Positions 2,198 through 44,429 of a stretch of 64,000 bases of DNA are shown here, piece after piece. The stretch comes from Octopus vulgaris (Eukaryota). A program made the translations under genes and the position numbers. The stretch spans positions 159,774,001 through 159,838,000 of the forward strand of contig OX597814.1 of NCBI GenBank assembly GCA_951406725.2, in the 5' to 3' direction. How positions within the stretch are numbered: the stretch's first letter is position 1; every line of letters starts with the position of its first letter. Under the pieces are notes generated by a model. The model had not been told where the DNA came from. It did no database searches and saw only the letters and a list, made by a program, of their open reading frames with translations.

Positions 2198-2514
2198 AGC
2201 AAAGTATTGTGCTTTACTTCGACTTAATAGCAAACTCATTCACGGCTGACTGTATTAGCACATGAGCTCTTTCCAGTATCGCCACAAAGAAAATACAATA
2301 CTTGGTTAACACAACAGTACAAATTTTGTTGTACTACCAGCTCCGGTTAAATCCGTATAGGACTATGTCACGTGCGTAGATAAAAACATAATAACGTATT
2401 GGAATATGAAAGAAAATAACAGGTAAGAAAATGAAAAAACCGCTTACACGAAAGTATGAATTGTTGTTATTCGATATTCTTCCAGACACGAGCAGCAAAG
2501 ATAAGAAAGATCCT

Positions 2515-2702
2515 ATGGGGAGAATGCCGAGGGGAAATGTAAGACATTTTGGTCCCCCCTTTATGGGTCCGCCCATGCCAGGTGAAGGTTTTGAAGGGTT
2601 TCCACCACCACCACCTCCTTGTGCAATGAGTGCTCCTCCTCAATCGAGAAAGAAAAAAAACGCCGAGAAAGAGCGCTTGCAAGACGTGGAAGGCGAACCT
2701 AG
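2515..2702 (+). CDS. Transglutaminase coding exon 1 (Pro-rich N-terminus MGRMPRG...FPPPPPPC...SRKKKN)
   Basis: Acceptor ttccag at 2485, ATG at 2515, donor AG|gtgaat at 2703 (phase 2), matching the next exon. Confidence 0.8.
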
Positions 2703-3561
2703 GTGAATATGACTTATCGCAATAAATATTCTATGACAAACTTTCACAATTGATCAGAACTTCTATGCAATATTTTTTTAATGCGAAGGATGAGATGTAT
2801 TTTTTTAATGGATAGTATATGTATGGTTGTATTTTCTTAGATATGAGGATAATACAGAGAAACGACCTAAAAGCCCGGCAGCGACGCAGGAACGAAAATC
2901 GGAGGCCAAAGATAAGGATGTAAGAGAACCCAGGCAAGAAAATCACCATAACAGAAATGATCCCTGTGACAAACAAAGTGATGTTGGTAGTCAACATCGA
3001 AATTCTTCTGTTTTTGACACTGAATCAAAGTTTTCGGATTTAGAGAAGAGTAATAGATTTTACCCTTATCCAGAATTCGACAGGCATGGTATGATGCCTC
3101 CATTTGATATGATGCCTATGGGTTACGGTCCTCCTGACGGCATGAGACCTCCAGTGTATATGAATTATCCAGAAAAGCCTGTAGATATGTCTCGCATGAC
3201 AATGGATTTCGAAGGCAACTACATGGACAATAACGGACAATTCATGGATCCCTTAGATATGCCACAGCATAACGAAATGGATCTTCTTAGGGAGAATATG
3301 AACTTCCGTCCTCCATATATGGACCAATTTCCTGGAGATATGGATGGTTGTGTGGGTATACCTCCCATGGAAATGAAACGTTACACTCAAAGACGGAAAG
3401 ATGGGTTTGATGGTAAGTAGGAAAGAAATGCATTAAACTGCATGGTGCCTCCTTAATATAACTCATGCTTGCACATATAGACACACTTAAATTGCAAACA
3501 CAGAAAACCCTTAGGATACAAAATATACATACATGCATGCATACATATATATATGTATATG

Positions 3562-3613
<52 letters not shown>

Positions 3614-3635
3614 CATACATATATATATGTATATG

Positions 3636-3678
<43 letters not shown>

Positions 3679-3705
3679 GCATGCATACATATATATATGT
3701 ATATG

Positions 3706-3742
<37 letters not shown>

Positions 3743-3769
3743 GCATGCATACATATATATATGTATATG

Positions 3770-3860
<91 letters not shown>

Positions 3861-5101
3861 ATATAGGATAAAATTTTTTTCGGAAAAAATTTTTATCAAT
3901 GGCCAGCATATCATAAAATGCCTTTAAAGGTAAAATTTATACATAATTTACAAGATAAGAGCAGAAGAAAAATTCTAATGCCAAATATGCCGAAACAAAA
4001 GATTTTGTCGATAACCATTATAATTTATACGTCTCGAAAAAGACCGATAGAAATCTCTAAAAAATTCGTTATTACCGTATTGGTCCAATTTCGGGGTTAA
4101 TTCCTAAGAAATTTTCCCCTCTTCAGCGGCAAATACGCGAGATATAAATGAAATACTTACTCATACCCACGGAGAAAGCAAGCACTAAGTCCCGAGCAGA
4201 CTTAAATACCCCAAATATATCCAGATTTGGTATTAGAATTTTTCTTCAGCCCTTATCTTGTAAATTATGTATAAATTTTACCTTTAAAGGCATTTTTTGA
4301 TATGCTGGCCATTGATAAAATTTTTTTCCCGAAAAAAATTTTATCCTATATTAATTATAAATAGACTAGCAGTATCGCCCGGCGTTGCTCAGGTTTGTAA
4401 GGGAAATAACTATAAAGCATTTTTAGAGAGTTATAGCCCAAAAATAGCAAAAAAATGGAAAAAAATGATGGTAATTTTTTTTTTTTTAGTTAAAAAAAGG
4501 TGGAGTTGCGTCCCCTAGACAGGTTGCGGTTTGTGTTTCTGATTCTCGACCCCATGTCGAATTTATCGATTTTTTTCAGAACTGGGGGAACTTTTCAAAA
4601 TTTTCGCTGCGTTAGTTTTGAATTATGGCATTGAGCTATGTGTGTGTCAAGTTTCATCAGAATCGGTTGAAAGCCGTGGTCAGGGTGAGGGTACAAGCAA
4701 ACAGACACACAGAAACACGCACAGACAAACTGCCGTTTATATAGAGAGAGATTAGTGTTCACTTCCGGATTTTATCACTCTGTGAAAGTTTCTAGTTCGA
4801 GTCTCGAGGTGCGCCGAAGATTTTTCTATTTTTGATATATTTCGGGTACTTAAGTCTGCTCGGGACTTAGTGCTTGCTTTCTCCGTGGGTATGAGTAAGT
4901 ATTTCATTTATATCTCGCGTGTTTGCCGCTGAAGAGGGGAAATTTCTTAGGAATTAACCCCGAAATTGGACCAATACGGTAATAACGAATGTTTTAGAGA
5001 TTTCTATCGGTTTGTTTCGAGACGCATAAATTATAATGGTTATCGACAAAATTTTTTGTTTCGGCATATTTGGCATTAGAATTTTTCTTCTGCCCTTATC
5101 T

Positions 5102-5150
<49 letters not shown>

Positions 5151-5201
5151 ATATATATATGTATGTGTGTATATATATATGTATGTGTGTATATATATAT
5201 G

Positions 5202-5239
<38 letters not shown>

Positions 5240-5387
5240 TGCATATATATATGTATATATATATATGCATATATATATATATATGTATGTATGTATATAT
5301 ATATATATATATGCATATATATATATATATATATATATATAAACATAATTAAATAGGGTAATAAAATAAATTTATTATATTTTTTAT

Positions 5388-5431
<44 letters not shown>

Positions 5432-5854
5432 CTGACAAAATGCTTAGCGCCATTTTGCTCGTCTTTATGATCTGAGTTCAAATTCTGCGCGGTTGACTTT
5501 GCCTTTCATCCTTTCAGGGTCGATAAAATAAGTACCAGTTGAGTACTGGGTCGATATAATCGACTTACATTATTGGTAACCTGTTCGATTAACAAATAGC
5601 ATATATATATATATATATATATAACGGGAAGGTTTACGAAAATAAACAAAAGACGAAGGCAGGTGTAGTACAAACAAATAATGTATTAGTATGGCGCTCA
5701 GGAATAGAAATAAAACAAGTCTTTTACGTTTCGAGCCTACGCTCTTCGAAAGAAAGATACACAGACAAGAAACTATATATATACACACACACATATATAT
5801 ATATATACGGAGAGAGACAGACATATAAACAGACAGAGACCTACAGATAGACAA

Positions 5855-5931
<77 letters not shown>

Positions 5932-6148
5932 GATTATGTCTGTTTTCAACTACATAGGCACCTAAAGCAACTACCAAAAGAGTGGTACAAGCTTTCAGAT
6001 TATACTCACTTGTAGGGGAGGTCTACGCTTATAGATAGATAGATAGATAGATAATGATTGTCTGTTTTCAACTACATAGGCACCTAAAGCAACTACCAAA
6101 AGAGTGGTACAAGCTTCCAGATTATGCTACTTGTAGGGGAGGTCTACG

Positions 6149-6187
<39 letters not shown>

Positions 6188-7021
6188 AAACACACATACA
6201 TGTGTTGTATGTGTGTTTGACCTTATTTATATACTTCGTAATTCACATTTGAATTACATGTGTGTGTGTGTGTGTGTATGTGTAGATACATATGCTAAAG
6301 TAACAAATTAAGGAAAGAAATTTCTTCAAAGGGGTGTGTAAAACATCCAATTCACTGGTACATCAGTTGAGTACCACAGAAATGCAAGTTACAAACAATT
6401 GAATAGAGAGATTCAATTGACAATCTAATAATTTATTTATAATTCCGCAAAGAAAAATTATATAAGTTATATAAATGATAATATAGTATCATATTAATAT
6501 AATGGTAACAACCGCAGGCTGATATACTCATATGGCACAAATATAGTAAATTTTTCAATCATAAAGTTTATACAATATTCGTATGCCTATTTGCGATATA
6601 GGTCGCTTTTCCATTACCACTTAAAATGGTCAGACCCAAACAGAAATCGTTTATTTTCACTATAAAACACATATTGCTAGGTTCATACCACCCCCTTAAG
6701 ACCCAACTACAGTCTAGCTGAAAAATATAGAGTACCTCATAAGTAATATAAACGTTCTAAATTCAGTGGGGGCGTTAATGAAGATGTTACGCGTTAATTT
6801 AATGTGTTAAACTTATATTTATTAATGTATATCGAATTATACATAGATATATTAAAGATTTACACAGATATAAGAGTTAGAACTTAAGATCCACCCGCAG
6901 ACATTTTTCTTAGGAAATTTTTGCCCGCCGCAACTAAAAGGTTTCCCCACCTCTGGTTTTAGAGCAGCTAACAAAAAACTGTTCTTTATTTACGTAATTT
7001 ATAGAGTTAAGTTATAATAAT

Positions 7022-7087
<66 letters not shown>

Positions 7088-7373
7088 ATAACAATATAGG
7101 GTGAAGCCAATTAATTTGGAATAATCATTAATTTCACCAAATAGATTTCGGCATGTAAAAGCCCCATTCAAGGAAGGTTTAAGTAATACTAAGTAATTAA
7201 GGGTTTAGCAACAATTTGCCTCACCACACACCGAATTTAGAAATAGCAGTCAAAGAGTTATGGCTATTCTTTCTACTTAAAAGTAGAAAGAATAGCCATA
7301 ACTCTTTGACAGCTATTTCTAAATTCGGTGTGTGGTGAGGCAAATTGTTGCTAAACCCTTAATTACTTAGTAT

Positions 7374-7431
<58 letters not shown>

Positions 7432-7616
7432 AAAATCAAGGAACGGCCATAATAGGCCATTCACCCACTAGAAATAATAGTGGGTGAATGGCCTATTATG
7501 GCCGTTCCTTGATTTTGCTGTTAAATTTACAAATGGTCTATGACTATTTAATTTTTTTCCCACTAGGCAGCTGGTGGCAAAAAAATTCTACGAAATTTTT
7601 TGCCACCCTATATTGA

Positions 7617-7651
<35 letters not shown>

Positions 7652-7685
7652 AGTTAGATAGATAGATAGATAGATAGTTAGATAG

Positions 7686-7755
<70 letters not shown>

Positions 7756-8182
7756 TCAATTCAAATAAACGAGTAAAATTAACGGAAGACAAGAGGATGT
7801 GCACAAGAAATATAACTTGATACTCGGTGAAAAGAGAGAAAGGAAAAAGTCGAAAGAAGGAAAAGAAATCGCCAACTGCACGTGTGTAATTACATTGTTG
7901 ATGTATATGTGTGTCTGTTTATATGCGTATATACTTGTGCATATGCACACTCACATGTGCACAAGTTTCTCCTTGTTACAATTTTCTTTTAGCCATACCA
8001 GTCATCTGAAAAGGCGTGAGTTTGCAGAAACTCGAGCATAATTATTATTACTAAACTTGTTAACTTAAATATTCTTTTCTACTAGTACTGAGTACTTTTT
8101 CACTCACTCGTTCTTCTATTTAAACGACCTGTGTGCATGTATGGGTTTCTGGGTGTGATTTAATAATAACAATAATAATAAT

Positions 8183-8238
<56 letters not shown>

Positions 8239-8333
8239 TAAATATTTCAGTGTCACTTTGATGGCATGCACTGCTCTCTCACTCAATAATAATAATAATG
8301 ATAATAATGATGATAATAACAATAATAATGATG

Positions 8334-8397
<64 letters not shown>

Positions 8398-8836
8398 TCA
8401 TGATGATGATGTATTACATTACAATAATATATTTTAACTGCACACTACATATTTAATAAATATGAGCTCAGTTCCGCTGTGTCAGTAGTAAATCGGATGA
8501 AATAGACATTCACGATGAACTGATAATAGCTGAAGAAACTAGTCGTATTGTAATTTACAACGCTTAGAGGAGGCGAGCTAGTAGAATCAATTAGCCCGCC
8601 GGGCAAAATGCTTTGTTATTTCTTCCAGCTTTACATTCTGAGTTCAAATTCCGCTCAGGTTGACTTTGCTTTTCATCCCTTCGGAGTTGAAATAAATACC
8701 AATTGAGCACTGGGGGGTTGATGTAATCGACTTGCCCCTCAGCCAAAATTTCAGGCCTTGTTAAAGATTATTAAATACGCATATACATTTATGTACAAGC
8801 GTAACCACAAACATTGTGCCTCATGTAATTTTTGTA

Positions 8837-8921
<85 letters not shown>

Positions 8922-8970
8922 GTATGTATATGCATATACATACATATATATAAAATATATATATATATGT

Positions 8971-9016
<46 letters not shown>

Positions 9017-9030
9017 GTATGTATATGCAT

Positions 9031-9096
<66 letters not shown>

Positions 9097-9184
9097 GTAT
9101 GAATATGTATGTATTATGCTATTATGCACGTGCAAATTTATGTATATAATTTATGCATATAATAACATATATTATTATATTTGT

Positions 9185-9226
<42 letters not shown>

Positions 9227-12200
9227 CCATGCATGTGTATATACATGGGTTGGACAAAATAATGGAAACACCTTGCATCATAGCATCATAATTTTGAAAT
9301 ATCTATAAAAGCGTCAAAAGCTTGTTTATTTTTATGTTTCTTGATTTATTATTAGTGTTGTTTAATATGTTTTGCTAAAATTGCTGCTTCTTTTCAGATA
9401 TCATCAAAAAAAGGTAATTAAAATTCATTAAAATATCAGATCTACCGGACTTTCAAAGAGGTCAAATTGTTGGTGCTCATATGGCAGTCCATACCTCATA
9501 GAATTCAAGCTGTAATTACTACCAAAGGCGGTTCTACTCAATATTAAAATTAATTTGAAATGTTAAGGTGTTTCCGTTATTTTGTCCTGTATATCTGTAT
9601 ATAAATATACATACATGCATAATTACACCCCCCATCACGCCCCCCCCCCCACACACGATTATCTTAATCGAAGGATTAAGATGACCACTATTGAATATAG
9701 AACTCAAAACTTTGACTTCACTTTAAGAATTAGTTTGTGCGTGCGTGCGTGCGTGCGTGTGTGTGAGAGAGAGTGTGTGACATGTGAAATTGTAAGTATA
9801 GCAAATACAAGAAAAAAAAAAGAAAAGGAAAATATTTTAAAGTTTAAAATATAATTATTTTTCAGAGATGAGTCCTCAAGAACTCATGGAAAATGGAATG
9901 CTGATCGTTACTCACGTCGACTATCACTTGGATGAAACTTTGAGGCTTCATCACACTGACCAATATGATATTGGCCAGAATGGTCAATTGATAGTTCGAC
10001 GTGGACAACCATTTATGTTGACTATTGAATTTCATGAAGAATACAACGAGGAGAAACATAAAATAAGATTCATCTTCCAAATTGGTTAGTATTTCTGTGA
10101 TCGTTTACTGAATTAAAATTATTTATTTATACGTTGGCAGAATCGTTAGCACACCGCGCAAAATGCTTAGCGGCATTTCGTCCGTCGTTACGATCTTTGT
10201 TCAAATTCCGCCGAGGTCGATACTAGCTTTGTTCCAAATTTTGAAACTAAAATTATTTATTCATTTATCTATTAATTTACTAAACAATAATATGGTTTTC
10301 TTTGTTTCCATAAGGTGAACACCCTCTACCATCAAAGAAGTCTGACATCAGGTTTGGCCTGACCGACAAATGGTATCCAGAAGAATGGGGAGCAAAACTG
10401 GTGTCCAGGAGAGGCAGAATGATTACTGTCTGTGTTCACCCTGCTTGTGATTGTATTGTAGGAGTGTGGGATTTTATGATTAAAACTACAGTAAGCGGTA
10501 AAGGAAGCTACATTTTCGACAATTTTGAGCAAATCTACATCCTCTTCAACCCTTGGGGCCAAAGTAAGTTGCTGAAAATAAATAGCAATCTAAGACTTGT
10601 GATCTATTCGAGTATTTGTTGTTCATAGATTTGTGCACGTCTGTATGAGTGAAGACATGCATGCTTGACCTCTCGTGTCCAGAAGTGTACTGTGTGTGTG
10701 ACTGTGCGTGCGCGCGTGAATGCGTGCGTGTGTGCGCGTGTATGTGTGTGTGTACGTCATCTCCTTGAATTATTTAGTTGCCACTAGATTTCACCCCTTG
10801 CATGTATGTATGTATGTATGTATGTATGTATGTATGTATGTATGTATGTATGTATAGCACATTTAACTGCTTTTTTATTTATTGACCTGGTCTAGAAGTA
10901 GAGGCTGTGCCCAAACTTTCACAGGGCCTCTGTTAAGATCTTATATGAACTGTTAACCCTGTAGGAATGACATTTTGTGATGGTGAGGAGTAATGTTCTG
11001 AAGCGGAAGAAATGAACGAAGGGTTTAGTGTTGTGTATGGTGGGGATAACGTGTGAAGGAGGTAACAGGGCTAACGTGCGTATAATATGCATAACGTGTG
11101 AAAGAGTTGAATGAGTCAGGACTGTTTGAGTGGAGAAAGCACGACATCACCACTTCCAAGGAGTCGAGGCCACGACAGTAGTCGTAGAAAAAGCAAAGAG
11201 CAATAGCATGTCTGTGCCGTAGCGTAGCAGTAGTAGAGGAGGAAGCGACAAGAACGGTCCAACCCGGACGACGCTTTTGTGGGACCAGCATTTTTGCGCT
11301 GGTTGTATAAGCTTGGGGGCTTTGGGAGAGGTGGTATGGTCAAAATCAAGGGTTGTCCCAGACAGCACACTTTCTAGCCACGCCAGAGAGACAATTGTAA
11401 GAGTGTGAGGTGTGCGACTTTTAACCACTAAATCGAATGACCTTTCTTTGGGTGTAGCCTGGATTGTCTACGTGTATAGCAACAGCGCTATGTCAGACTT
11501 GGAAGCATTGCTCTATTGTTGGTTTATCTGAGCTTTGTAGAGGATCAATAGTTGTTGTGGGGAGCGGTACGAAATCTCTGAAGAGGAAGGTAAAGCTTCG
11601 TAATGCGATTTTTAATATATTAAGGATGTGTGTTCATCCTTAATAAGAGAAAGGCCTCTCATTTGAAGTCATCGTGAATTTTCTAGTTGCGTGTTGATCG
11701 TGGATTGTGATGGTGTATTCTTGATACGGGTAGCGATTGTGTCTTTTTTGTAAATATGTATATTCTACGAGATCTAATGTGCAAGTATATGTATGAATTT
11801 GCATAATTATTATTTAGATATTAGAAAGCTTCACTTCGAATGTGATAAGAGTGAAAGTGTTTGCTTTATTATTACATTGACGGAAAGGCTTTCCAAAACT
11901 TTAATTTCAGTTTTGACTTAGGCCATGTTGCATATAAAATAGACATCTTACTTATGTATTCTTACCAATGCCCTCCTCCTCCTCCTCCTCCTCGTCTTCC
12001 TCCTTTATCCACTTCTATCTCTTTCTCTCTCTTCTTTCTGTCAACATGTCTATATTTCAGTATAAATTGTTATTCTTTCCAGCTGATCAAGTATACATGG
12101 AAGATAAAGACCTTCTCTATGAATATGTGCTAAATGATCATGGACACATATTTCAAGGAAGCGGGTGTTCTTCCGTTTACCAGAAACCCTGGAATTATGG

Positions 12201-12506
12201 TCAGGTATGCTTTAAAAGTAACATGTTGCTTTCGTTTAACACTTTTCCATCGTTAAGCACACAGAAAATAACTGAGCGTCTTCTAGCAGATCAGTTTCGG
12301 AAATACTTCTACATCAGAGACGTACCACTATTCTTTGGATAACCAGCGAACTTTGAATCGAAATTGTAATATATATATAGCGGTAGTTTATCATTAATGG
12401 TCGTCCTCAATTATTTGCAATACATTATTTGCCGCGTAGTAAATTAAATAAAAAAAAAAATATTCATGTAGAAAACTTAATTCAAGATACTTGAAACATG
12501 TACAAA

Positions 12507-12566
<60 letters not shown>

Positions 12567-13098
12567 GGAGATTCAAAACCTTTCGAAGTATCAGAACAAT
12601 GGTGGTATAACATCTCTGATAAGAGCCAGTTATTCTGAAACAGATTTATAGGGAGATTCACAGTTTCTGTTTACTGAAAAGAACAACAGTTTCCTCATTA
12701 TCACAGACTTCGCAGCTAAGGCTTTCAAATAAGTAAGCATGTTTCAGGTATATCGAACTGCACTATATATATATATATATATATATATACACCTCCTTCT
12801 CTTACACTTTCCTGTCTGAGAAAGAACTTTTTCTTTGCCCATTCCCTTCCGGTTATTCCGAAAGGTAACTACATGTGGATTGTTGGCGATTTTTTTCCTC
12901 CATCTTTCTTTTCTCTTGGACTTTCTTCTGTCTCCTGTTTTTAAAGAAGAGCTTTGCTCGAAACGTAAAACACCCTTTCTTTCCTTCCCTGAGCGTTTTT
13001 TAATTCTTTGCATGTACCACGTCCTTGTGTTGTTTTTTTTCTTGTGTTTTTTCTTCGTTTTTTATTAACTATATATATATATATGCACACACATATAA

Positions 13099-13161
<63 letters not shown>

Positions 13162-15160
13162 AAGTTGCTCATTTACTATATTATTTTATTTACTTTTTCG
13201 TCTCTGAAAAGAAAAGGGAAATATTTGTTAATATTTGTATCTTTACAGTTTGACGAAGATATTTTGGATATCGCCTTATATCTGATGCGCCAGGGATTCT
13301 TGGAATATTGCCCTCAAATGAGTAGCCCTGTGCGGGTTGCACGAGTGCTTGTTCATGTGGTAAGTAATTTTGTGTTTATGTCTTGGTCGGGAAGGAATAA
13401 TAGGATTCATGACTTGTTTTCTCCGGATCTCCAAGACCGTGGGAGGAAAGTATTGAAGAACCAATGAGTTATAAGTTATCCTCAAAACAGCGACCTGGAT
13501 TAAATATTCACAACAATAACTTGTTAACCCGTCCGGCGAGTTAAGTCAGATGGTAACTAGATAATTTAATGAGCTGACGTATACACACACACGAACGTGC
13601 ACGCGCGCAAGCAAGCATACATACATACATACATACATACATACATACATACATACATACATACATGCATGCATGCATGCATACATACATACATACATAC
13701 ATACATACATACATACATACATACATACATACATACTGATACGCATCTAAATATACATATATGTTTGTTTATAATCATAATCCATGCTTAATACAAATTG
13801 TCTGAGTTGAATCATTCAACTCAAGATTATTTACACTGGTAACAAGAAAATATTATTCTTACTACTGTATAGAAAATATACATATTGATGGAATGTACAT
13901 GCTCAATATTGTCCTTTCGTTTTCCATAGAAATTTAGCTGAACAAAAAAATCTAAGATAGTAATATTTATTAATCCTGTTTAAATTATTAATTCAGCTGT
14001 ATTCTATTTTAAACGTTTTATTAATTTTTCTGAAGTAAATAACCCAGTGATTATGAATGCACAGTTCTATTGTCAGCCACATACAATCTGACCTGTGTAT
14101 ACATTTCTCTAAAGCATTTAGCATTGCCAAAAACTGATTTCACCCTTTTTTTTTAAAGCCAATAGAAGAGGAGGGCAGTGTCTATGACCTCTTAAGGCCT
14201 TTACAGAAATAGCAAGACTAATGTAAACGATGGCCAGTTTGAGCCTCAGCAAGCCAATGTCTGCAGGAAAAATATGGGTGGGTGGTGAATTATCTTTGTT
14301 CTTGACAGAATATTTGCAACAGGATAAGGCGGTAAACTGGGCGGTGCGCGGAGCAAAATGCTTAGCGGCATTTAGTCAGTCTTTACATTCTGAGTTCAAA
14401 TTCTGCCGAGGTAGGCTGTGCCTTTCATCCTTTGGGAATCGATAAAATAAGTACAAGTTGAACACTGGGGTCGATGTAATCGACTTATCCCCTCCCCGGA
14501 AATTGCTGGCTTTGTACCAAAATTTGAAATCAATATTTGTAACAAGGTGGTCTTCGCTACAGGCATCCATGAAACAGTTTGTGGTGTTAAACAGGGTGAT
14601 GATTTAGACCTCCTACCAAAATAAGCTGCTTAAATTGCATTATGGTTTCTTGATTGATATGAAATAACGAGGCATTGCTATCCTTTCCTTAGATAATTTT
14701 CAGTATTTCTTATTAGCGAATTGAATTTTCAACTGCCCAATCTAATTTGTTGCGCCTAATCTAGAAATTCAACTTAAATAATATCTAATTTCTTTTCTGA
14801 TGAAAAGTCATGCCCAACAGGTTCACAAACCTATTCGATTTTTCTATCTTTATTGTCTTTTAAATTTGTGTTGCTTTGTAGATCAATTCTCCTGAAAACA
14901 CTGGAGTAATGATGAGGTTTGATTCCGATAATTGTCAAAACGGCAAAAAACCAACAGCATGGGGTGGTAGTCGAAGAATTCTTCAGCAGTTTATTGATAC
15001 CAAAGAACCAGTTAAGTATGGACAGTGCTGGGTATTTTCTGGACTTCTTACTACAGGTATTCTTTTCAATATACTCTCTGTTGTGTCGTAAACAGAAACA
15101 TTGATCAAAGGATTTTAGTAAAGTCGTGAAAATGATGTAGTAATGCTTCGTGTGCCTCTG

Positions 15161-15198
<38 letters not shown>

Positions 15199-15445
15199 CA
15201 TTATTATTATTATTATTATTATTTGATGAAAACTCTCAGCATATTTTGCTGGATATGATGGAAAGTGTCACTTGTCCTAGCCAGCAGACTAATATGATAC
15301 TTTTTTTCTGAGTTCAAATTCCGCTGAGGTCGACTTTACCTTTCATCCTTTCGGGGTCAATTAAATAAATACCAGTTACGCACTAGGATCGATGTAATCG
15401 ACTTAATCCCCTCCCCCACGCTGCCCTTGTGGCACAAATTTGAAA

Positions 15446-15521
<76 letters not shown>

Positions 15522-16801
15522 GGCGGGGAACTGACGGATTCATTAGCACGCCGGGCCAAATACTTAGCAGCATTTCGTCCATCTTTATGCTCTGGGTTCA
15601 AATTACGCCGAAGTCGACTTTACCTTTCATCCTTTCGGGATGGAATAAAATAAGTACAATTTGAGTTACTGGGGGTCGATGTAATCGACTATCCCCCTAC
15701 CCCAGAATTTCGGGCATTGTGTCTATATTAGAAAAGATTATTATCATCGTTATTATTGAAATTACCTTGACCTCTACTTCACTTGAGATCACCTGCATAC
15801 CCTTTATGTCAATAAAATCTGCCCTCAGCTAAATGTCCCAACGTTGTCTACAAAGCTTAATTACTTCAAGCTAACTTATTTTACTCTGTATTGGTTGTCC
15901 AAAGTCGAATATTCATGAAGCAACATCAGCCGTCAGTAACTATCATCTTACTGATGAATGTTATATCACTATATGAAAACTTTTGTGGAGGCGCAATAGC
16001 CCAGTGGTTAGAGCAGCGGACTCGCGGTTGTAGGATTGCGGTTTCGATTCCCAGACCGGGCGTTAGGAGTGTTTATTGAGCGAAAACACCTAAAGCTCCA
16101 CGAGGCTCCGGCAGGGGGTGGTGGCGATCCTTGCTGTACTCTTTCGCCACAACTTTCTCTCACTCTCTTCTGTTGGCCTGCTCGCTTAGCCAGCAGGGTG
16201 GCGTCATTTGAAGGCTAAAACAATGCGAAGTGCATTGTGACCAGCGATGTGTAGTAACATCTGATAGCCTGGTCGGTCACGGTGATCACGGTGATATGAA
16301 GACTTTTATTTTTAGTAATCTCAACAATCGCATCTAAAAGAGTCCATTTTAAAAACATTTGTTTTGTTCATTCCTTTATTTATTTCCAGTTTGCCGGGCC
16401 CTGGGTATTCCTTGCAGAACTGTTACCAATTTTAACTCTAACCACGACAGTGATGATAACTTGTCTGTCAATGTTTATCTTGGAGAAGACGAGAAAGGAA
16501 ACATCTTTGAACAAAAGGAAGGAAATGTTTGGTTAGTTGATGTCAATTTTAAAAGTTTATAACGGTTGTAGATTGCTAGAATTGTTAAGCATCGCACACA
16601 AGCCTTGCAGTATGTCCCTGTACATTCTGAATTCAGATCTATCCCGGATCGTCTTTACTTTTATTTATTTATTATTATTATTATCATTATTCAGTAGTTT
16701 TATTTTTATAGCGTGCTTTCACTTCACTACCGAGCGCAGCTCTGTGTGCCTTGGGTATGTGCTGTGATTTGTTGTGATGCTCTGATGGTTATTGTATGGA
16801 A

Positions 16802-16862
<61 letters not shown>

Positions 16863-19800
16863 TTCTTGGAGTTAATAAAATAAGCACTAGTCAAATACTA
16901 GTGTCAATACAATCGACTGTACTCTCACTCACCAAAATTTGTCATTTAAAAAATTATTGTTGATTATTTAACTATACTAGAAATACATTAACTGCGGAAT
17001 TATAGTGTTAACCGGCTGAACACTTGGTCGTGTGTTAATCCATTATTAATACTTCAGAAGGCGGCAAGCTGGCAGAATCGTTAGCAAGCTGGGCTAAATG
17101 CTTAGCGGCATTTCTTCCGAGTTCTAATTCAGTTAAGGTCAGTTTTGCCTTTCATCCTTTCGGTAAATTAAAGTATCGGTTAAGCACTGGGGTTGATGGA
17201 ATCGACTAGCTTCCTGTCCCAAAATGTCAGGCTTTGTACCTATAGTAAAAAGGACTGTTAATACTTCAAAATCTGTCACGCACCAGGGCAACACCTTCAA
17301 ATATAGTTACGTCAGTCTACCTGGCTGCTAAACAGGTTTTTCTCCGGTTTCATGACTGCATAGTTAGCATCGAGCTACAAAATAATCGCCCTAAAAATAC
17401 ACAATACAATGAAAATAATCCCAGCCATTCTAAGACAGGAACATGGACGTAAAGCGATAGACAAAAGGTTATTCCATAAGAAATCAACATTTTTTTTTTG
17501 TTTGCAAAATGAATCAATATTTTATATTTAAACAACTCATCCAGGCTAAGACGTTGTATATGGATTCATAAGGAGGAGCAAGTGAGATTGTTTGGCATCC
17601 AGGATTTTCTGAAAAGAATTAGTAATTTAAGTGAGAAAGAGACTTAGTAATTTAAAGCTTTAACCATAAGTCGAAACTAAACCGTAGAATCAGCTCGTCG
17701 GAAGTTTATCTCTTGTCTCAACAGTGAATATCTGAATCCAATCTGTAACTTTACCAACACTACCTTGTTTGCTATTTCCACCAAACTGCAAATAGGTATT
17801 ATCTAGTTCTATAACTCGCCCTACTTAGGGTTTTGGTAACAGACACATACTCCCACCCCAGCCAAAACCTACAATAACTTGCGTAGCAATACAAGCATTA
17901 AGATATATTTTTACATTTTGAATGTTATAATAAATTTCAGCACACAGCATTCACTTTGCAAGGGCATGCGGCAAGCATATGAATCTGCAGTGAGAAGCCC
18001 TGTACAGTCGATCGTCCTTAGGAATATTCTACATTACCAATATATTCTTTATTCTATATTTCGATTAAGAAATAAATAAGTGATTAAATTTAAAACCAAA
18101 GTAAATTGCAAATCATAACACCAGCAGCGATATTGAATGATTCTTGAAATTCCTTCTTGATTTATATTGAAAAAAAAAATAATAAAAGGAATAAAAATAA
18201 TGCAGAAGATTAACAAATGATTCTTTTATGTATTTTTCATAATAAATTTTCATCTTTCATATTTTAACTATATTTAGGAATTTCCATGTTTGGAATGATG
18301 TTTGGATGAGTCGTTCAGATCTTCCTGTGGGATACTGTGGCTGGCAGGCTGTCGATCCAACCCCCCAAGAAGCAAGCGACGGTAAAACATACTTAACTGT
18401 TTTGTAATTATCTCATTTTTAAATATCATTTCTATTAGAAACAAATTGTTTTAATGTTGTGTATTCCTCTTAATTTTCCTTGAGTTAATCCAGGGAACCT
18501 TAAGTAAACAGGTACCATATTTTCGAAAAAAGGAAATATTTGAGATAAATCTTCTCGGGTCCAATATGCAAAGTTGAGCCTCCCATAAGTTTTAATCTAC
18601 TGATTGAACATAACTTGATATTTTGATGTGTTACTCCTATTGCATTAACCCATGTATTTCTTACTGCCTTTCCTTCAAGTAGTTCCTAGCATGGACGGTA
18701 CCTGTTCTTTTAGGAGGTAGACATATTCAGAATATATCACCTAAACATTAATAATCTCTCTGTTAATACTTATCCGATATTGTCGCATTAGGATCCTATG
18801 ATGAATATGTACAATTATTCCAAAGCTTCAACTTCATATCGCATGCCTTTTAGGTTTAAATTATATTTAAAACAAAAGTAAAACGAATAATTTCAATAAC
18901 TTTGTTCCTGTGTTAGGTATTTACTGCTGCGGACCTGCTCCTCTGAAAGCTATAAAGAATGGTGAAGTGAACCAAACTTTTGATACTAACTTTATATTTT
19001 CGGAGTTAAACGCTGATCGGGTCTACTGGAAGAAAAATCACCGTTCAGGAAAATGGGAAATTGTTCATATTGATAGAAATGCGTAAGTAGAGTTAACCAT
19101 TATTTTTCATTTCGATAACATGACCAATATATTCAATATTATCTGAGTGAATTGAAATTTTGAAAAACTGAATTTATTTTTCCATTGATAGATTGGGCAA
19201 GTTCATCTATACCAAGTACCCAAATTGCAAACCCGGTCATAATCGCAGTGGTGGTTTGATGGACATTACATTTGATTACAAGCTGGTCAATGGTATGTAT
19301 GGTAGAACAGTTCAAGAAATAACATATTGTAAATGGATCTAATTTGATAATATGAGTTATTGAAAGGATACAAGCTTTACTTTGAATGTATTAGCACTTA
19401 GAGTGCTGTTATTGTAATTGTGTTTACTATAGTAATATCATTTGTATATAGGGTATGTAAATCAAATATCGGCAATTAAAATTATGCGACACTCTTCAAC
19501 AGTAATGCACTGCTTCTAATTTGTTACGAAATTATGAACAATTTGCACGTGTAACAAATAAGATAGTATATTTGTTAGCGTTGATATGTTCACCTTAGCC
19601 CCATGTATACAAGGCGCTAACAATTCCGTTCTTTTTCTCAAGCCGTTACTGTCTTGAAGAATTTTTTTTTTTTTTTTGCTCAAAGTTCACATCACATTCA
19701 TGATTTGAAGCTATCGTTTTTGTACAGTTGTTCTTTATCTACAATCAACTAAGCCATATATTTACGGAATCAACATCTTCGGCTCACATAGTCTAATTCA

Positions 19801-20294
19801 ATTAGGTGCAAGAATGAACCGTCGTATGATATAATTTACCATTGAAGGATTTGCATTATATCCTTCAGAAATGAAATTTTTATCACAATCATTGGAGCAT
19901 TCTGTGTATTTTAAACTGTCCAGTGCAAAAGCCGATACTGTATTACCGTTTGTATGCAAGTATATTTGTATGGGCTGCTAGAGAACTATATTTATTAAGT
20001 TAGTGAACAATAATGTAATAATGTGAAGTTTCTCTATTGTTGCTTAATAATCTCCCTTTTTTTAAAATATCACACTTTCTATATTCAACTAATAATCATT
20101 CCAATAATCATTCTAAGGTTCAGAATATGATCGTATTGATGTAATCAATGTCCACCGGAAAAAAATGATGCTTCACAGGGCCAAGAAATCTTCACACTAT
20201 CAGGAGGTAGGAACACGTCAGTGTTACAAATTTCTCTCTGCTTTTCTATCTTTTCCCAAAAGTTTATTGGAAGTTTACCCTGTACACGCGCACA

Positions 20295-21719: not shown

Positions 21720-22614
21720 TTGATGTGTACTTGTAGATATGTACATACAAATATCCACACATATGCTCATGCATACTTATGTAAATGCATTCAAATGATA
21801 GAAAATAAAATTAGATGTAAAGTTTTAATTTACATTACTGTAAGTTCTAATCTAAGACGATTATATATTTCCAATTCAAACACAATACAGGATGTGGAAT
21901 TCCGTATAAGTGAGAGGGAAAGTGTGATGGTTGGCCAAGATTTCAACATCACTCTCCACTGCCGCAATACTGGTCAAGATCAGCGTTACGTAAGCAGTTC
22001 AGTTTATTGCAAAATTGTCGACCACTTTGGTGAGAAGATTGGTATATGTCGTGAATTACATGTCAATAATTTCTTTGACGCCAAGAACAGTAAGTAGCTT
22101 TTTTCTAAATCTCTAGCTCTCTATCCAGCACGTGTTCTTCATCAAAATTCTTCTCTTTAACCTAATTCATAAAACTAAATTAATTCGTTCTCACTCGTTA
22201 TTTGTCCACAAGTTTCCTCGTAATTCACCCAATACTTTTCATTTATTTAGCGTAACCATTCATTTAGTTATTTCTCAGTTCACAAAATCAATATGTACAT
22301 AAAATCAGAAACTATAATTACACATTTTTTTTCGTTCTTCTAATATCCAGGTAAAATGATAGTCATGAACGTTGCTCCAGAAGACTATATGCCGTTTTTG
22401 GGACGTGACAATAACTCTCGTTTGTCAATGAGAATTATGGTCTATTGCAAAGTTAAACAGACTGACCAAATGTTCGTTTTCAATGACAGTTATCAACTTG
22501 ATTGGCCTTACTTGACCATTGAGGTTTGTTTTATTACCCTTTTAGCATGCTACAAGATATTTAAACGATCGTTCAAGTAACAGACAGGAATTTTATACAC
22601 ACACACAGACACAC

Positions 22615-22654
<40 letters not shown>

Positions 22655-22815
22655 CCACTCAACGATGAACCACTTCTACCTAGCTTTGATTGGCAGCCTC
22701 AACAACAACATGCTTTCAGTTGCAATCCCTGCCGGAGTTTTAGTGGTAAATCAAATCGAGCACTTATAGTACCTTCCTTATTACATTACGACATTTGACG
22801 AAAATCCTTTACCTA

Positions 22816-22867
<52 letters not shown>

Positions 22868-25010
22868 GCAAGGTTGTGTATGCGTGTGTGTGTATACATG
22901 TATGTATGAAGAATGATAATCTTTTCTACTCTAGGTACAAGGCCTGAAATTTCTGGGGAGGGGGCTAGTCGATTAAACCACCCCCAGTACGCAACTGGTA
23001 CTTAATTTATCGACCCCGAAAGGATGAAAGGCAAAGTCGACCTCGGCGGAATTTGAACTCAGAATATAAAGACAGACGAAATACCGCTGAGCATTTCGCC
23101 CGGCATGCTAACGCTTCTGCCAGCTCGCCGCCTTATGAATAATCTTTTTTACTTTAAGCACAAGGCCCGACATTTTGCGAGAAGTGGCCAGTCGATTAGA
23201 TCAACCCCAGTACACAACTTATGAGTAATGATAATAAAGTCAAAACAAGTATTAATATTTTGCATGCATTTAAAACACACGTTTCAGGTAATTAAACAAA
23301 AGAGAATTATTTTCTTTTTGCGGCATCATTCTTTCTAACTAATTTTGTTATGTTATTACAGGTTCCTCCGAAGATCAGAGTGAGAGATGAAGTCATGGCA
23401 CGCATATCTTTTGTTAATCCTTTGGATATTCCACTTACAAACTGTGAACTGATGTTGGAAGGAAATGGATTCGAACGCATTTATGAGATTCGTGTTAGGT
23501 AAGTTTCAGAATTTTGTCGAGAGTAAAAGTTTCTTTTTACAAATCTACCAGCTTCGGTCTGCAATTCTATCAGTTTACAACTATTTGTCAACGGGTTAAT
23601 GTGAAAGCCTTTTACGTGGCTAATTGACCTGTTAGAAATAACAGTCAAATCTTCTTGTAATACCTTATTATCTTAAAAAGGAGAAATTTACATTAGATAA
23701 AGTAATCGTACACACTCCTGAAAAGAAGCGATTATGGTTGCAATGCCTTTGATCTTAGCTGTGTTGAACGTATGCTAAATAAAACGACAACTAACATTGA
23801 TTTCTAGCATAGACAGAAGCTCACACCCTTGAGGATGGTGCCACAGTCGATTATATCGAACATAGTACTTAACTGCTAACATATCGACCAGATACTGCAA
23901 AATAATTTTCATTCACAAGAAACCTCATTTCGTAAATCATTTTTATTTTCCATTATATGCAACAGAATCAATACTAGACTAAGATAACTATTTATGAATG
24001 ATACTTAATATAAAAACACCGTGAAAAGCAAATTTATTGCGGTATTCACTCTGATGTATCTCTTATGAACATGCTGTGTTTAAAAATACAATATATATAT
24101 CGGAGGTAGACGAAAATCGCCCTAGTAGAGAATGCATCTAACATTCTCAGCCACCACTGCTAGGATGATTTTCGTCTGCCTCCGATAGATCTTGTTTTTT
24201 AAACGCAGCACGTTCATAAGAGATATTATTCCCAGATGAATACCGCACTAAATTTGCTTTTCTGATGTGTTTACATTGAATATGATACATAGATGTCCAC
24301 TTTTATTTCTTACGAAAACTGATCAATGAATATTTATTAGATTAAAGATTTCTCCTTATATATATATATATATTTCAATGACATAATACATCTTTTTTTT
24401 TTATGCTTATTTCAGGAATACTCCCTCCTTTTCTTTACGTATTTCAATATCTTACCCCTTTTTAAACAATTCAATTAAATTCATTCTAATTTATATATTT
24501 GGATTTTTTTCTCACTCTTTTACATATCTCAGTAACATTTTTACACATTCAATGAAATTCCTCCCTCCCTCTTTCTCTCTCTCTCTCACGCACACACACA
24601 CGCGCAAACACACACACGAATACTCACGCACATAAACAAACACAAACACACAGAGAAACACACACACACATAAAAAACACACACACACGAACGAACACAC
24701 ATTTTAGTGAAGATTTCAATGGAATCTTTCTCTTGTTACATATTTCAGTTTAATTCCCGCTCCTCCTATTTTTCCTCAAGTATTTTGCTAGAATATTATT
24801 TATTTATCTTGTTTACATATTTATTTCAAATCTGTAATTGACGTTCCTCTTTTCTTTTCTATTAACAGTGATGTTCCGCCACATGGTAACTTTATGGAAG
24901 AGATTGTATTCATCGGACGCAAGATTGGTGAAAAACAATTAGTTGCTACATTCTACTGCCAAGAACTATGCGATATCGTTGGTAGCTCCATGCTCCAAGT
25001 CTTCAAATAA
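2515..25010 (+). CDS. Transglutaminase (protein-glutamine gamma-glutamyltransferase, annulin/hemocyte-TGase-like), 16 coding exons, 962 aa, with a reflectin-motif N-terminal extension (whole gene span)
   Basis: Exons 2515-2702, 2841-3412, 9866-10084, 10315-10563, 12083-12204, 13249-13359, 14882-15056, 16390-16531, 18278-18381, 18917-19082, 19192-19292, 20118-20206, 21891-22089, 22351-22523, 23362-23498 and 24869-25010 splice (all GT-AG) into one 2889-nt open frame. TGase motifs: [30 protein letters not shown] (catalytic Cys), WNFHVWND (His), [11 protein letters not shown] (Asp), [17 protein letters not shown]. Confidence 0.95.
2841..3412 (+). CDS. Transglutaminase coding exon 2 (charged, then Met/Pro/Asp-rich; contains the reflectin motif)
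   Basis: Acceptor attttcttag|, 572-nt open frame, donor G|gtaagt (phase 1) compatible with exon 9866. Confidence 0.85.
3525..3857. repeat. (TA)n compound microsatellite with higher-order TACATGCATGCATACA...TGTATATGTATGTA unit
   Basis: Directly visible. Confidence 0.95.
3861..5103. repeat. Nested long inverted repeats (3861-3986 / 4225-4352 and ~3950-4222 / 4833-5103), flanked by (TA)n
   Basis: Reverse-complement identity read directly. ORFs 3918+ and 4954- encode nearly the same peptide. Confidence 0.9.
4366..4751 (-). mobile_element. Non-autonomous mini-Helitron (Lep1-like)
   Basis: Minus strand: A|TC start, internal gtctgt repeats, subterminal hairpin (cctgagcaacgccggg) and CTAG|T end. 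Confidence 0.75.
5103..5428. repeat. (TA)n/(TG) compound microsatellites
   Basis: Directly visible. Confidence 0.95.
5436..5570 (+). mobile_element. Abundant SINE (MetaSINE-like core gcctttcatcctttc..ggtcgataaaataagtacc), partial
   Basis: Same consensus as more than 10 other copies in this window. Confidence 0.8.
5621..5775 (-). mobile_element. Penelope-like element terminal-repeat (pLTR) fragment
   Basis: Homologous to 53395-53540, which lies directly downstream of a GIY-YIG remnant. Confidence 0.6.
5929..6152 (+). repeat. ~100-bp direct duplication (5929-6032, 6052-6152) separated by (GATA)n
   Basis: Near-identical units read directly. Confidence 0.9.
7182..7377. repeat. Near-perfect palindrome, 97-bp arms, 2-nt loop
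   Basis: 7182-7278 is the reverse complement of 7281-7377, with one mismatch seen. Confidence 0.93.
7432..7516. repeat. Perfect hairpin, 39-bp arms, 7-nt loop
   Basis: aaaatcaagg...cacccacta / tagtgggtg...ccttgatttt. Confidence 0.93.
8160..8410. repeat. (TAA)n microsatellite containing a ~40-bp retroelement 3'-end fragment (8247-8284)
   Basis: The fragment is the reverse complement of 63419-63456. Confidence 0.85.
8568..8762 (+). mobile_element. Abundant SINE copy (MetaSINE-like)
   Basis: aggcgagctagtagaatc...gactttgcttttcatcccttcgg...gatgtaatcgactt. Confidence 0.85.
9244..9590 (+). mobile_element. Internally deleted Tc1-like DNA transposon
   Basis: TIRs ggacaaaataatggaaacacct / aggtgtttccgttattttgtcc. 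Transposase N-terminus ([13 protein letters not shown]) lies beside its C-terminus ([18 protein letters not shown]). Confidence 0.8.
9866..10084 (+). CDS. Transglutaminase exon 3 (beta-sandwich: HHTDQYD...LIVRRGQPF)
   Basis: ttttcag| acceptor, G|gttagt donor, TGase N-domain motifs. Confidence 0.95.
10315..10563 (+). CDS. Transglutaminase exon 4 ([10 protein letters not shown]...CIVGVW...[10 protein letters not shown])
   Basis: ccataag| acceptor, A|gtaagt donor, conserved LFNPW. Confidence 0.95.
12083..12204 (+). CDS. Transglutaminase exon 5 (DQVYM...EYVLND...PWNYGQ)
   Basis: ttccag| acceptor, CAG|gtatgc donor. Confidence 0.95.
13249..13359 (+). CDS. Transglutaminase exon 6 ([10 protein letters not shown]...[12 protein letters not shown])
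   Basis: tttacag| acceptor, GTG|gtaagt donor. Confidence 0.95.
14325..14535 (+). mobile_element. Abundant SINE copy (MetaSINE-like)
   Basis: Matches the window consensus. Confidence 0.85.
14882..15056 (+). CDS. Transglutaminase exon 7 with catalytic Cys (YGQCWVF, TGC at 15026-15028)
   Basis: tttgtag| acceptor, G|gtattc donor, active-site signature. Confidence 0.97.
15300..15738 (+). mobile_element. Two tandem SINE copies (15300-15447 partial, 15518-15738) separated by (ATT)n
   Basis: Match the window consensus. Confidence 0.85.
15987..16293 (+). mobile_element. tRNA-derived SINE with target-site duplication
   Basis: A-box (TAGCCCAGTGG), B-box-like (GTTTCGATTCC), cggtgat tandem tail, and ~16-bp TSD atatgaa(a/g)actttt(g/a)t at 15971 and 16294. 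Confidence 0.8.
16390..16531 (+). CDS. Transglutaminase exon 8 ([19 protein letters not shown])
   Basis: ttccag| acceptor, TG|gttagt donor. Confidence 0.96.
16690..16800 (-). mobile_element. 3' end of a Dong/R4-clade LINE within (TAA)n
   Basis: Homologous to 63160-63368; flanked by (ATT)n. Confidence 0.65.
17058..17255 (+). mobile_element. Abundant SINE copy
   Basis: Matches the window consensus. Confidence 0.8.
18278..18381 (+). CDS. Transglutaminase exon 9 with catalytic His (18285-18287) and Asp (18354-18356): [17 protein letters not shown]...[11 protein letters not shown]
   Basis: tatttag| acceptor, G|gtaaaa donor. Absent from the ORF track; translated by hand. Confidence 0.97.
18917..19082 (+). 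CDS. Transglutaminase exon 10 ([16 protein letters not shown]...[11 protein letters not shown])
   Basis: tgttag| acceptor, GC|gtaagt donor. Confidence 0.96.
19192..19292 (+). CDS. Transglutaminase exon 11 (LGKFIYTK...DITFDYK)
   Basis: gatag| acceptor, G|gtatgt donor; G.xI.TK and DIT..YK motifs. Confidence 0.93.
20118..20206 (+). CDS. Transglutaminase exon 12 (GSEYDRIDV...HYQE)
   Basis: ttctaag| acceptor, GAG|gtagga donor; phase-compatible on both sides. Confidence 0.9.
20946..21153 (-). mobile_element. Abundant SINE copy
   Basis: Reverse complement of the consensus. Confidence 0.85.
21479..21668 (+). mobile_element. Abundant SINE copy
   Basis: taaggcggcgagctggcagaatcgttagc start. Confidence 0.85.
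21891..22089 (+). CDS. Transglutaminase exon 13 (beta-barrel 1: DVEFRI...VGQDF)
   Basis: aatacag| acceptor, A|gtaagt donor. Confidence 0.93.
22351..22523 (+). CDS. Transglutaminase exon 14 (PEDY...CKVKQTDQ...PYLTIE)
   Basis: atccag| acceptor, GAG|gtttgt donor. Confidence 0.93.
22921..23134 (-). mobile_element. Abundant SINE copy (near-consensus, CpG intact)
   Basis: Reverse complement of the consensus. Confidence 0.9.
23362..23498 (+). CDS. Transglutaminase exon 15 (beta-barrel 2: [12 protein letters not shown]...EGNG)
   Basis: ttacag| acceptor, AG|gtaagt donor. Confidence 0.95.
24010..24275. mobile_element. Fold-back/MITE-like element (~110-bp imperfect arms)
   Basis: aaaagcaaatttattgcggtattca...atcggaggtagacgaaaatc pairs with gattttcgtctgcctccgat...tgaataccgcactaaatttgctttt. 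Confidence 0.75.
24869..25010 (+). CDS. Transglutaminase exon 16, terminal (DVPP...GEKQLVATF...DIVGS...FK*)
   Basis: taacag| acceptor, TAA at 25008-25010; typical TGase C-terminus. Confidence 0.94.
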
Positions 25011-43800: not shown

Positions 43801-44025
43801 AATCACCAACACTGCTGCAGCTGCCTTTGAGAAGGATAGCCGGCTATGCCTCGCAGACACAAGAGACAGACATTACTGGGTCACATCCTCCTCAGTCCTT
43901 AACACAGATTATCAGTGTCCAACCTGCGGGCGCTGTGTGCTTCCGGCTGCGGAGCCACGAGCGTTCTCACTACTGACTGCTGAGACCACAGACTATGTCT
44001 TCATCGGAGATCGATGGACTACCAA
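40830..44025 (+). mobile_element. RTE-clade (BovB-like) LINE, near full length but inactivated
   Basis: APE motifs (ALSETR, IISAYAPT, LGGFNARVG, TWMHPRSKHWHLIDY), RT motifs (KAPG.DEI, CSNYRGI, ETQCGFRPGCSTIDM, FVDLTKAF, LLYGCET, QLRWIGH), a C-terminal CPTCGR, and a typical tcatcg..cgatggacta 3' end. Many stops and frameshifts. Confidence 0.93.
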
Positions 44026-44429
44026 GATTTGGGCAGGGGAATGGCAAACTCAAGAGTCCGGAAAATTTATACTAGCCTCTTACAGAATAATAGAAACCAT
44101 AAGTGTCTTTAAGAGCGTGCCGTCCTAGTCTCCAAAATGAAATTTCAGAATACAAACTACAATCATTCGGCATAAAACTTCAAAGCCAATATTTCCCAAA
44201 GTTTCCTGAAAAAAATTCAAGGGTTCCAAGGAATAAGATGTCATTTAATAGGTATTTGTTCTCTTTTTTTTTTTTTTGTGAGGGGAAGTGCTCATTTTCA
44301 AAATAGCAAGTAATTACAAGTTGTTTTTGTCATTTGTTCAAAAGAATTAATTTCTCTCACGAAAGCAAATGTTTCATTTAGAATTTGACGCCAAAATTTG
44401 TCCTCAAATACAGATGAATTTCGCAGCTT

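Follow-up and report, generated by a model that had tools for sequence, protein, structure and literature searches.

The transglutaminase gene that we describe here, on the plus strand of a 64,000-nucleotide window of the Octopus vulgaris genome (C1:159,774,001-159,838,000), carries in one of its exons a motif whose homology to the reflectins, as judged from sequence, is confirmed beyond chance. The encoded protein is a reflectin-motif-bearing enzyme, not a reflectin, and what is new is the fusion itself, the enzyme belonging to the transglutaminase family and not to the reflectin family. We regard it as a strong candidate modifier of reflectin structures.

Within the window, sixteen exons with ag/gt ends (2486-25010, plus strand) encode 971 residues with no internal stops, a product identical to residues 22-992 of the 992-aa NCBI model P0002; outside the window, on its upstream side, the gene has two alternative first coding exons, at about -31.3 kb and about -0.8 kb. 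The gene spans 22.5 kb. Cassette exon A (2486..2702, plus strand; phase 1 in, phase 2 out) encodes the Pro/Met-rich and then Lys/Glu-rich part of an N-terminal extension, and cassette exon B (2841..3412, plus strand; phase 2 in, phase 1 out) encodes the reflectin motif at 3157..3252 (residues 199-230), in frame in the translation of 3100-3300 and within the open frame 2809-3417. The donor of exon B (G, then gtaagt) joins an acceptor at 9866 (ttcag, then AG) across a microsatellite-rich, phase-1 gt-ag intron of 6,453 nt (3413..9865). An earlier note on this DNA had proposed that the motif exon splices in phase onto a complete transglutaminase, and we find the same 3412/9866 junction, on the basis of gene models and of the contigs of an orthologue described below. 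The note's "exon 2" corresponds to the third coding exon of the long NCBI models, which start outside the window. Exon A is present in models P0002, P0005, P0007, P0008 and P0010 and missing in P0003 and P0004, and the 789 nt of exons A and B amount to 263 codons, the exact difference in length between P0002 (992 aa) and P0003 (729 aa). The motif exons are thus an optional, frame-keeping cassette, and the annotated short isoforms P0003 and P0004 are without the motif. By eye, the intron that follows the motif exon contains inverted copies of an approximately 300-nt repeat (4028-4330 and 4760-5100), and a GC-rich stretch at 41000-44100 with broken endonuclease- and reverse-transcriptase-like frames reads, from its translations, as a decayed LINE.

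Several lines of evidence identify the motif. Against a strict HMM built only from 18 in-register motifs of eight named Sepia and Euprymna (cuttlefish and bobtail squid) reflectins, the Met/Asp-rich 120 aa of the motif exon score 30.6 bits, a value reached by none of 3000 composition-preserving shuffles of that stretch (shuffle maximum, 10.5 bits). With a broader HMM of 82 motifs, some of its rows out of register, the exon scores 41.5 bits and none of 5000 shuffles scores as high, so that the comparison with shuffled Met/Asp-rich controls on which the earlier note had staked its claim is decided in favor of the motif under both models. The note's gapless identity at 15 of the 22 core residues is reproduced against a real reflectin N-terminal motif of the same genome, and the MD(X)5MD spacing it had pointed out is part of a longer MD(X)5MD(X)5MD (3202-3249, plus strand) that conforms to the RM pattern as defined in the literature, [M/F]D(X)5MD(X)5MD (PMC9779258). 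When two real reflectin motifs were searched against the whole 2.8-Gb genome, the 45 and 14 matches all fell in eight ORFs: six reflectin ORFs, one ORF on C20 and the enzyme's motif exon, the last at E 0.0065 and 0.021. A search of 1.84 billion representatives returned eight matches, six of them reflectins or reflectin-motif proteins; the other two (P0017 and P0018) are unrelated repeat proteins, one from a fish, and were dropped. No Pfam family matches the motif exon, and at the DNA level the likeness of exon B to reflectin genes is confined to the motif codons (32-48 nt at 79-88%).

As to type, the picture is a mixed one. The label "N-terminal motif" was right about reflectin homology but not about class, since the lead-in YPE[KR] is a feature of internal motifs. 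The octopus motif aligns with the internal-type motif of the 922-aa orthologue P0035, and the features of an RMN motif, a MEPM start near the start of the protein, are absent from it: there is no EPM, and the motif sits at residues 199-230 (RMN and RM are defined in PMC9779258 and bioRxiv 10.1101/2025.08.12.669908). It is best described as a hybrid, with an internal-motif lead-in and an N-terminal-like middle, identical at 16/29 positions to the best N-terminal type and at 15/29 to the best internal type. The loss of arginines and the resulting acidity hold for the octopods, with a net charge of -4 in Octopus and Argonauta, but not as a general trait, as the orthologue's motif has a net charge of -1, inside the range of -5 to +1 found for this genome's own reflectin motifs. 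Likewise, the change of Q to E is present in the octopus motif yet is not distinctive, the position being D or E in 14/43 of the genome's reflectin motifs.

Downstream of the cassette, all of the expected transglutaminase domains are recognized by Pfam past its cut-offs: the N-terminal beta-sandwich (PF00868, E 1.7e-27; 9866..10563, exons 9866-10084 and 10315-10563), the catalytic core (PF01841, E 1.6e-15; residues 548-650), which lies with the linker in exons spanning 12083..20206 (12083-12204, 13249-13359, 14882-15056, 16390-16531, 18278-18381, 18917-19082, 19192-19292 and 20118-20206), and two stretches of C-terminal beta-barrel (PF00927, E 6.7e-13; 21891..25010, exons 21891-22089, 22351-22523, 23362-23498 and 24869-25010, the last with the stop), all on the plus strand. 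The enzyme matches factor XIII A at E 3e-112, and alignment to that protein places the intact catalytic residues Cys566 (within YGQCWVF; codon 15026..15028), His626 (18285..18287) and Asp649 (18354..18356), together with Trp544. Of three positions that we take to be calcium ligands of transglutaminases, N689 and D691 are kept, but at the third the octopus enzyme has Asn746 in place of the Glu in the family consensus YKxxEG. At residue 746 (window 19192-20206) the octopus Asn is matched by Ser in P0035 and Cys in the paralogs, and if the Glu is a calcium ligand, the calcium dependence of the clade may be altered. The clade is fast-evolving, with a stem of 0.86 changes per column and about 39% identity to other mollusc enzymes. 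In an AlphaFold model (65-row alignment, pTM 0.73), residues 285-992 are folded confidently and the extension has pLDDT below 50 except at the motif, where it is 60-67. The N-terminal extension, of 260-280 aa, is thus predicted to be mostly disordered; it has a net charge of -8, 8.7% Y+W+F, 14% Pro and 18 Lys, and it holds a single motif without aromatic, Arg-rich linkers.

The fusion extends well beyond O. vulgaris. Long, motif-bearing NCBI models exist for O. vulgaris, O. sinensis, O. bimaculoides and Argonauta hians, and the motif is also found in Logan exon reads P0012-P0014. A transglutaminase search yielded 1236 matches; among the 120 that were listed and scored for the motif, P0002 and P0035 have it and the other 118 score at most 1.5 bits. 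P0035/P0154, of 922 aa, has 69.7% core identity to the octopus enzyme, as against 85.8% between Octopus and Argonauta, and a quick tree, built from 46 rows picked from the 120 listed matches and cluster members and with SH-aLRT as its only support measure, joins it to the octopod sequences as their sister (SH-aLRT 99). It is probably from a decapodiform. Four full-length members of its cluster lie on Logan contigs of 3.3-4.0 kb, one of them on 20 contigs, and given the 22.5-kb octopus gene these contigs are almost certainly spliced transcripts. The orthologue's extension has a degenerate N-terminal-type motif at 55-80 (11.6 bits) and a near-canonical internal motif at 162-187, followed by the same exon boundary as in octopus, where the genomic exon reads P0216 and P0020 run off; P0020 retains an intact N-terminal-type motif (45.7 bits). 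To judge from these sequences, the ancestral extension would have looked like a miniature reflectin. Between octopus and P0035 the motif is identical at 18/32 positions with gapless MD spacing, the enzyme start at 30/47, and the flanks at 14/72, 11/73, 11/33 and 6/53. The motif is therefore the best-kept part of the extension and selectively conserved, which bears out the conservation in orthologues that the earlier note's reading called for. The ESM Atlas held no usable match for the orthologue's extension.

A sister clade (P0036/P0038/P0160/P0163), whose cluster includes Sepia pharaonis CAE1272223.1, is without the motif and has Asp in place of the catalytic Cys, with the His, Asp and Trp kept. 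It is 79% identical between two lineages, and by its residues it is a conserved pseudo-enzyme, its catalytic site dead. We found no octopus counterpart of this paralog, as a gene of its own, among the at least three other transglutaminase loci that we located in the O. vulgaris genome (C1:68.9, C1:215.7 and C5:90.3 Mb), and in two genome-wide motif searches no reflectin-motif match fell near those three loci.

In the genome, all six reflectin ORFs that we found lie at C1:159.57-159.72 Mb (159,572,921-159,717,792; L036, L038, L043, L046, L048 and L051), and the distance from the nearest of them is about 59 kb to the motif exon and about 25 kb to the first coding exon upstream. Since that reflectin is on the minus strand and the enzyme on the plus strand, the two genes diverge head to head. 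The six single-ORF reflectins are in mixed orientation, and the pair at 159.573 and 159.601 Mb is near-identical, His-rich and oppositely oriented. In O. bimaculoides, the consecutive accessions of the enzyme models (XP_014779607-10) and a reflectin (XP_014779611) suggest the same adjacency; NCBI names that reflectin "TBC1 domain family member 5 homolog A". Elsewhere in the O. vulgaris genome, an 822-codon ORF, apparently of one exon, at C20:72,680,264-72,682,729 (L059:4264-6729, plus strand) has a single reflectin-like motif, with 26 bits against the 82-motif HMM and a genome-wide E of 0.1. On this sequence likeness it is, beside the enzyme, another protein of this genome that bears the motif without being a reflectin; no usable look-alike was found in the ESM Atlas. 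The idea that it is part of a PAK7-like kinase was rejected, as it has its own stop, with no kinase exons in the surrounding 170 kb and no PBD match within 11 Mb.

Published squid data speak to the expression of homologues. In the excerpted tables of a Loligo vulgaris head single-cell atlas, where clusters 20 and 22 are called reflectin-positive and whose columns we identified from the header of a sister file (PMC9839350), two transcripts with best hits to XP_014779610 and XP_014779607 rank 3 and 6 among the markers of cluster 22. Both are detected in 83.6% of cluster 22 cells, compared with 2.8% and 9.4% elsewhere (log2 fold 2.9 and 2.7), and the same list includes reflectins A1, B1, A2, 8 and 1a, with reflectin A1 at 80.5% versus 8.0%. 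Of ten glutamyltransferase rows in the top-100 marker table for 34 clusters, two have this gene as best hit, both in cluster 22, and the remaining eight are three different transglutaminases in other clusters; neither enzyme transcript is in the top 100 of any other cluster in that table, reflectin-positive cluster 20 included. A re-clustered L. vulgaris table draws on the same cells and is not independent of the first, and the enzyme goes unmentioned in the excerpted main text of the same paper. The co-expression with reflectins that the earlier note had anticipated is thus supported for squid homologues in cluster 22 and not in cluster 20, for transcripts named by best hit only. The motif-less Cys-to-Asp paralog matches the same octopus gene equally well, so the dead paralog could account for one of these markers or even for both. 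Scores tie within 3 raw points, and we accordingly set aside the X1/X2 labels as a means of telling orthologue from paralog in the squid tables. The sister paralog may be the second transcript that marks the cluster. Co-expression could also be explained by shared enhancers of neighboring genes.

At the protein level, excerpted tables of a Doryteuthis pealeii chromatophore proteome list two homologues with counts of 3/8/19 and 2/9/16 in brown, red and yellow chromatophores, where reflectins A2 and B1 have 35/58/83 and 31/44/76; the rise from brown to yellow is also common to histones and ATP synthase (PMC6397165). In octopus, no match was found in the excerpts of three supplementary files of a brain atlas (PMC9712504), and the available passages of the PMC6386654 supplements contain human synteny rows only. 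Other strong markers of cluster 22, in the excerpted atlas table, are nucleoredoxin-like 2, an Rh ammonium transporter, an aquaporin, a PAK7-like kinase, a PP6 regulatory ankyrin subunit and Lhx1, and together these are a candidate parts list for the control of reflectin phosphorylation, redox state and water. Transglutaminase reactions release ammonia, and the Rh ammonium transporter fits with this, though it proves nothing.

Overall, we consider it somewhat better than an even bet that this protein is an intracellular transglutaminase of reflector cells, a candidate enzyme whose captured reflectin fragment recruits it to reflectin assemblies, where it acts on reflectin glutamines. Under this model, the gene would have captured, in a coleoid ancestor, a short reflectin-like stretch from its neighbors as an in-frame, phase-1 cassette comprising an N-terminal motif, a linker and an internal motif, of which the octopods would have retained the internal-type motif only. 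Contacts between motifs would then draw the long isoform into reflectin condensates or platelets, or it would enter them by Cu(I) bridging such as has been reported for reflectin peptides, and the short isoform would serve ordinary transglutaminase roles. Inside the assemblies, the enzyme would act on reflectin Gln. The 17 reflectins that we examined have 8-31 Gln each and nine of them have no Lys, and for proteins so Gln-rich and Lys-poor, a general mesh of reflectin with reflectin is less likely than amine incorporation, deamidation or a link to some Lys-bearing partner. Two of the octopus reflectins could be such partners, as could the 18-Lys extension of the enzyme itself. Reflectins are reported to condense upon charge neutralization through phosphorylation (PMC9779258); deamidation would neutralize charge likewise, and irreversibly. 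The outcome would be that charge is set, or assemblies fixed, during the maturation of reflector cells. At the same time, several points stand against recruitment: the octopods have one motif in an acidic extension, and single reflectin motifs fused to GFP are reported to spread freely in HEK-293T cells, in a test with no reflectin host present (PMC9986269).

A less probable but still serious reading keeps the fusion real and selected, and the enzyme in reflector cells, and gives it other substrates: the motif would anchor the protein at lamellar membranes or the cytoskeleton, bind Cu(I) or regulate the enzyme, and scaffold proteins would be cross-linked in place of reflectins. The scarcity of Lys in reflectins fits this reading, as do excerpted data showing that one squid homologue, D. 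pealeii protein 16456, has 46 peptide counts in a pigment-granule fraction where no reflectin was found (PMC6397165), that cluster 22 also marks talin, spectrin and laminins, and that reflectins themselves are reported to bind membranes (PMC9779258). Nonetheless, in a reflectin-filled cell a reflectin motif would most simply pair with reflectin, which has many glutamines to offer.

We think it unlikely that the motif is a mere passenger, a relic of the neighboring cluster tolerated in a disordered, skippable extension, with co-expression a product of shared enhancers. The cassette is indeed skipped in the annotated P0003 and P0004, the N-terminal-type motif decays in P0035 and is gone from the octopods, and a lone motif confers no localization in HEK cells (PMC9986269). 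The deepest comparison available speaks against this reading: at 18/32 the motif stands near the enzyme start (30/47) and above flanks of 11-33%, with no gap in its MD spacing.

The direction of transfer is a separate question, compatible with any of the proposed functions. The motif might have arisen in the transglutaminase extension, the reflectins then budding off by local duplication and repeat expansion, and both the position of the gene beside the reflectin cluster and the intermediate character of the motif (16/29 to the N-terminal type, 15/29 to the internal type) accord with such a course. We hold this to be improbable, in that the sister paralog and 116 more distant transglutaminases, among the 120 of 1236 listed, lack the motif, the orthologue's extension is already in reflectin order, N-terminal motif and then internal motif, and an origin of the motif from a bacterial transposon has been proposed (cited in PMC9779258). 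A bolder and similarly doubtful version would make the motif a portable address tag and not a repeat peculiar to reflectins. Originating in this calcium-regulated enzyme, or first employed by it, the tag would now carry into photonic condensates the enzyme, together in squid with its dead sister subunit, and further passengers of which the single-motif C20 protein is an example, the reflectins being an amplified copy of the targeting exon. If true, a host origin of the reflectins from the enzyme's targeting exon would compete with the proposed bacterial-transposon origin. Finally, it is very improbable that annotation has misjoined to the enzyme a small reflectin-like gene made up of the motif exons: the octopus junction is known from gene models, an ATG begins at the third base of the first enzyme exon and motif-less models exist, but exon B stops at its donor with no stop-terminated ORF of its own beyond two codons, the models of four species agree, and in the orthologue a single ORF of 922 codons, on contigs of 3.3-4.0 kb, encodes both motif and enzyme, with genomic reads (P0216 and P0020) that leave the protein at the same boundary.

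In the full-text literature we found no report of a fusion of a reflectin motif with a transglutaminase, most subscription papers, including the original reflectin and reflectin-origin papers, lying outside that search, and the excerpted texts of the Argonauta, Architeuthis, Doryteuthis and Sepia genome papers make no mention of a transglutaminase. The Architeuthis "reflectin-like" genes (Fig. S3) might include this exon. Structural proteins are where reflectin motifs have been described, and the database label "hemocyte" transglutaminase hides the connection. The function of the conserved motif has been called unknown (bioRxiv 10.1101/2025.08.12.669908), and this enzyme offers a natural test of what a single motif does, whether as an address tag or as a Cu site. 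It is also a concrete, knock-out-able candidate for the maturing, fixing or charge-tuning of reflectin platelets beyond phosphorylation. As a dated gene fusion it bears on the origin of the reflectins, and a reflectin-targeting enzyme would also serve reflectin-based optical materials.

Regulation or targeting of the enzyme by an N-terminal extension is known from factor XIII A and TG1. With these and other transglutaminases (factor XIII A, PDB 1EX0/1F13; TG2; TG3; hemocyte transglutaminase; annulin), the octopus enzyme shares the same four domains and the Cys-His-Asp triad with its Trp, and it differs from them in an extension of 260-280 aa, predicted to be disordered, with a reflectin motif that none of the 118 other relatives listed has. 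The sister paralog finds its analogue in protein 4.2 (PDB 7TVZ), which is described as inactive and structural (PMC13073648), whereas the octopus enzyme keeps its triad. Two reflectin-like proteins from ENA/Logan records, P0016 (1103 aa) and P0022 (1270 aa), are the closest match to the orthologue's motif, at 20/29 identities compared with 17 (internal) and 14 (N-terminal) for canonical reflectins, and each has five motifs above 30 bits and no enzyme domain. They represent a distinct motif subtype, with Arg/Pro-rich linkers and an acidic C-terminal half, and a stricter first look at the octopus genome found no orthologue of them. With the cephalopod reflectins, the enzyme shares a homologous motif, the MD(X)5MD(X)5MD spacing and a genomic neighborhood, and squid transcripts with this gene as best hit appear in a reflectin-positive cluster. 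The reflectins, in turn, consist of an N-terminal motif and three to four or more repeats, with aromatic, Arg-rich linkers and no folded domain; unlike them, the octopus protein has one motif (its orthologue one to two), joined to a folded enzyme.
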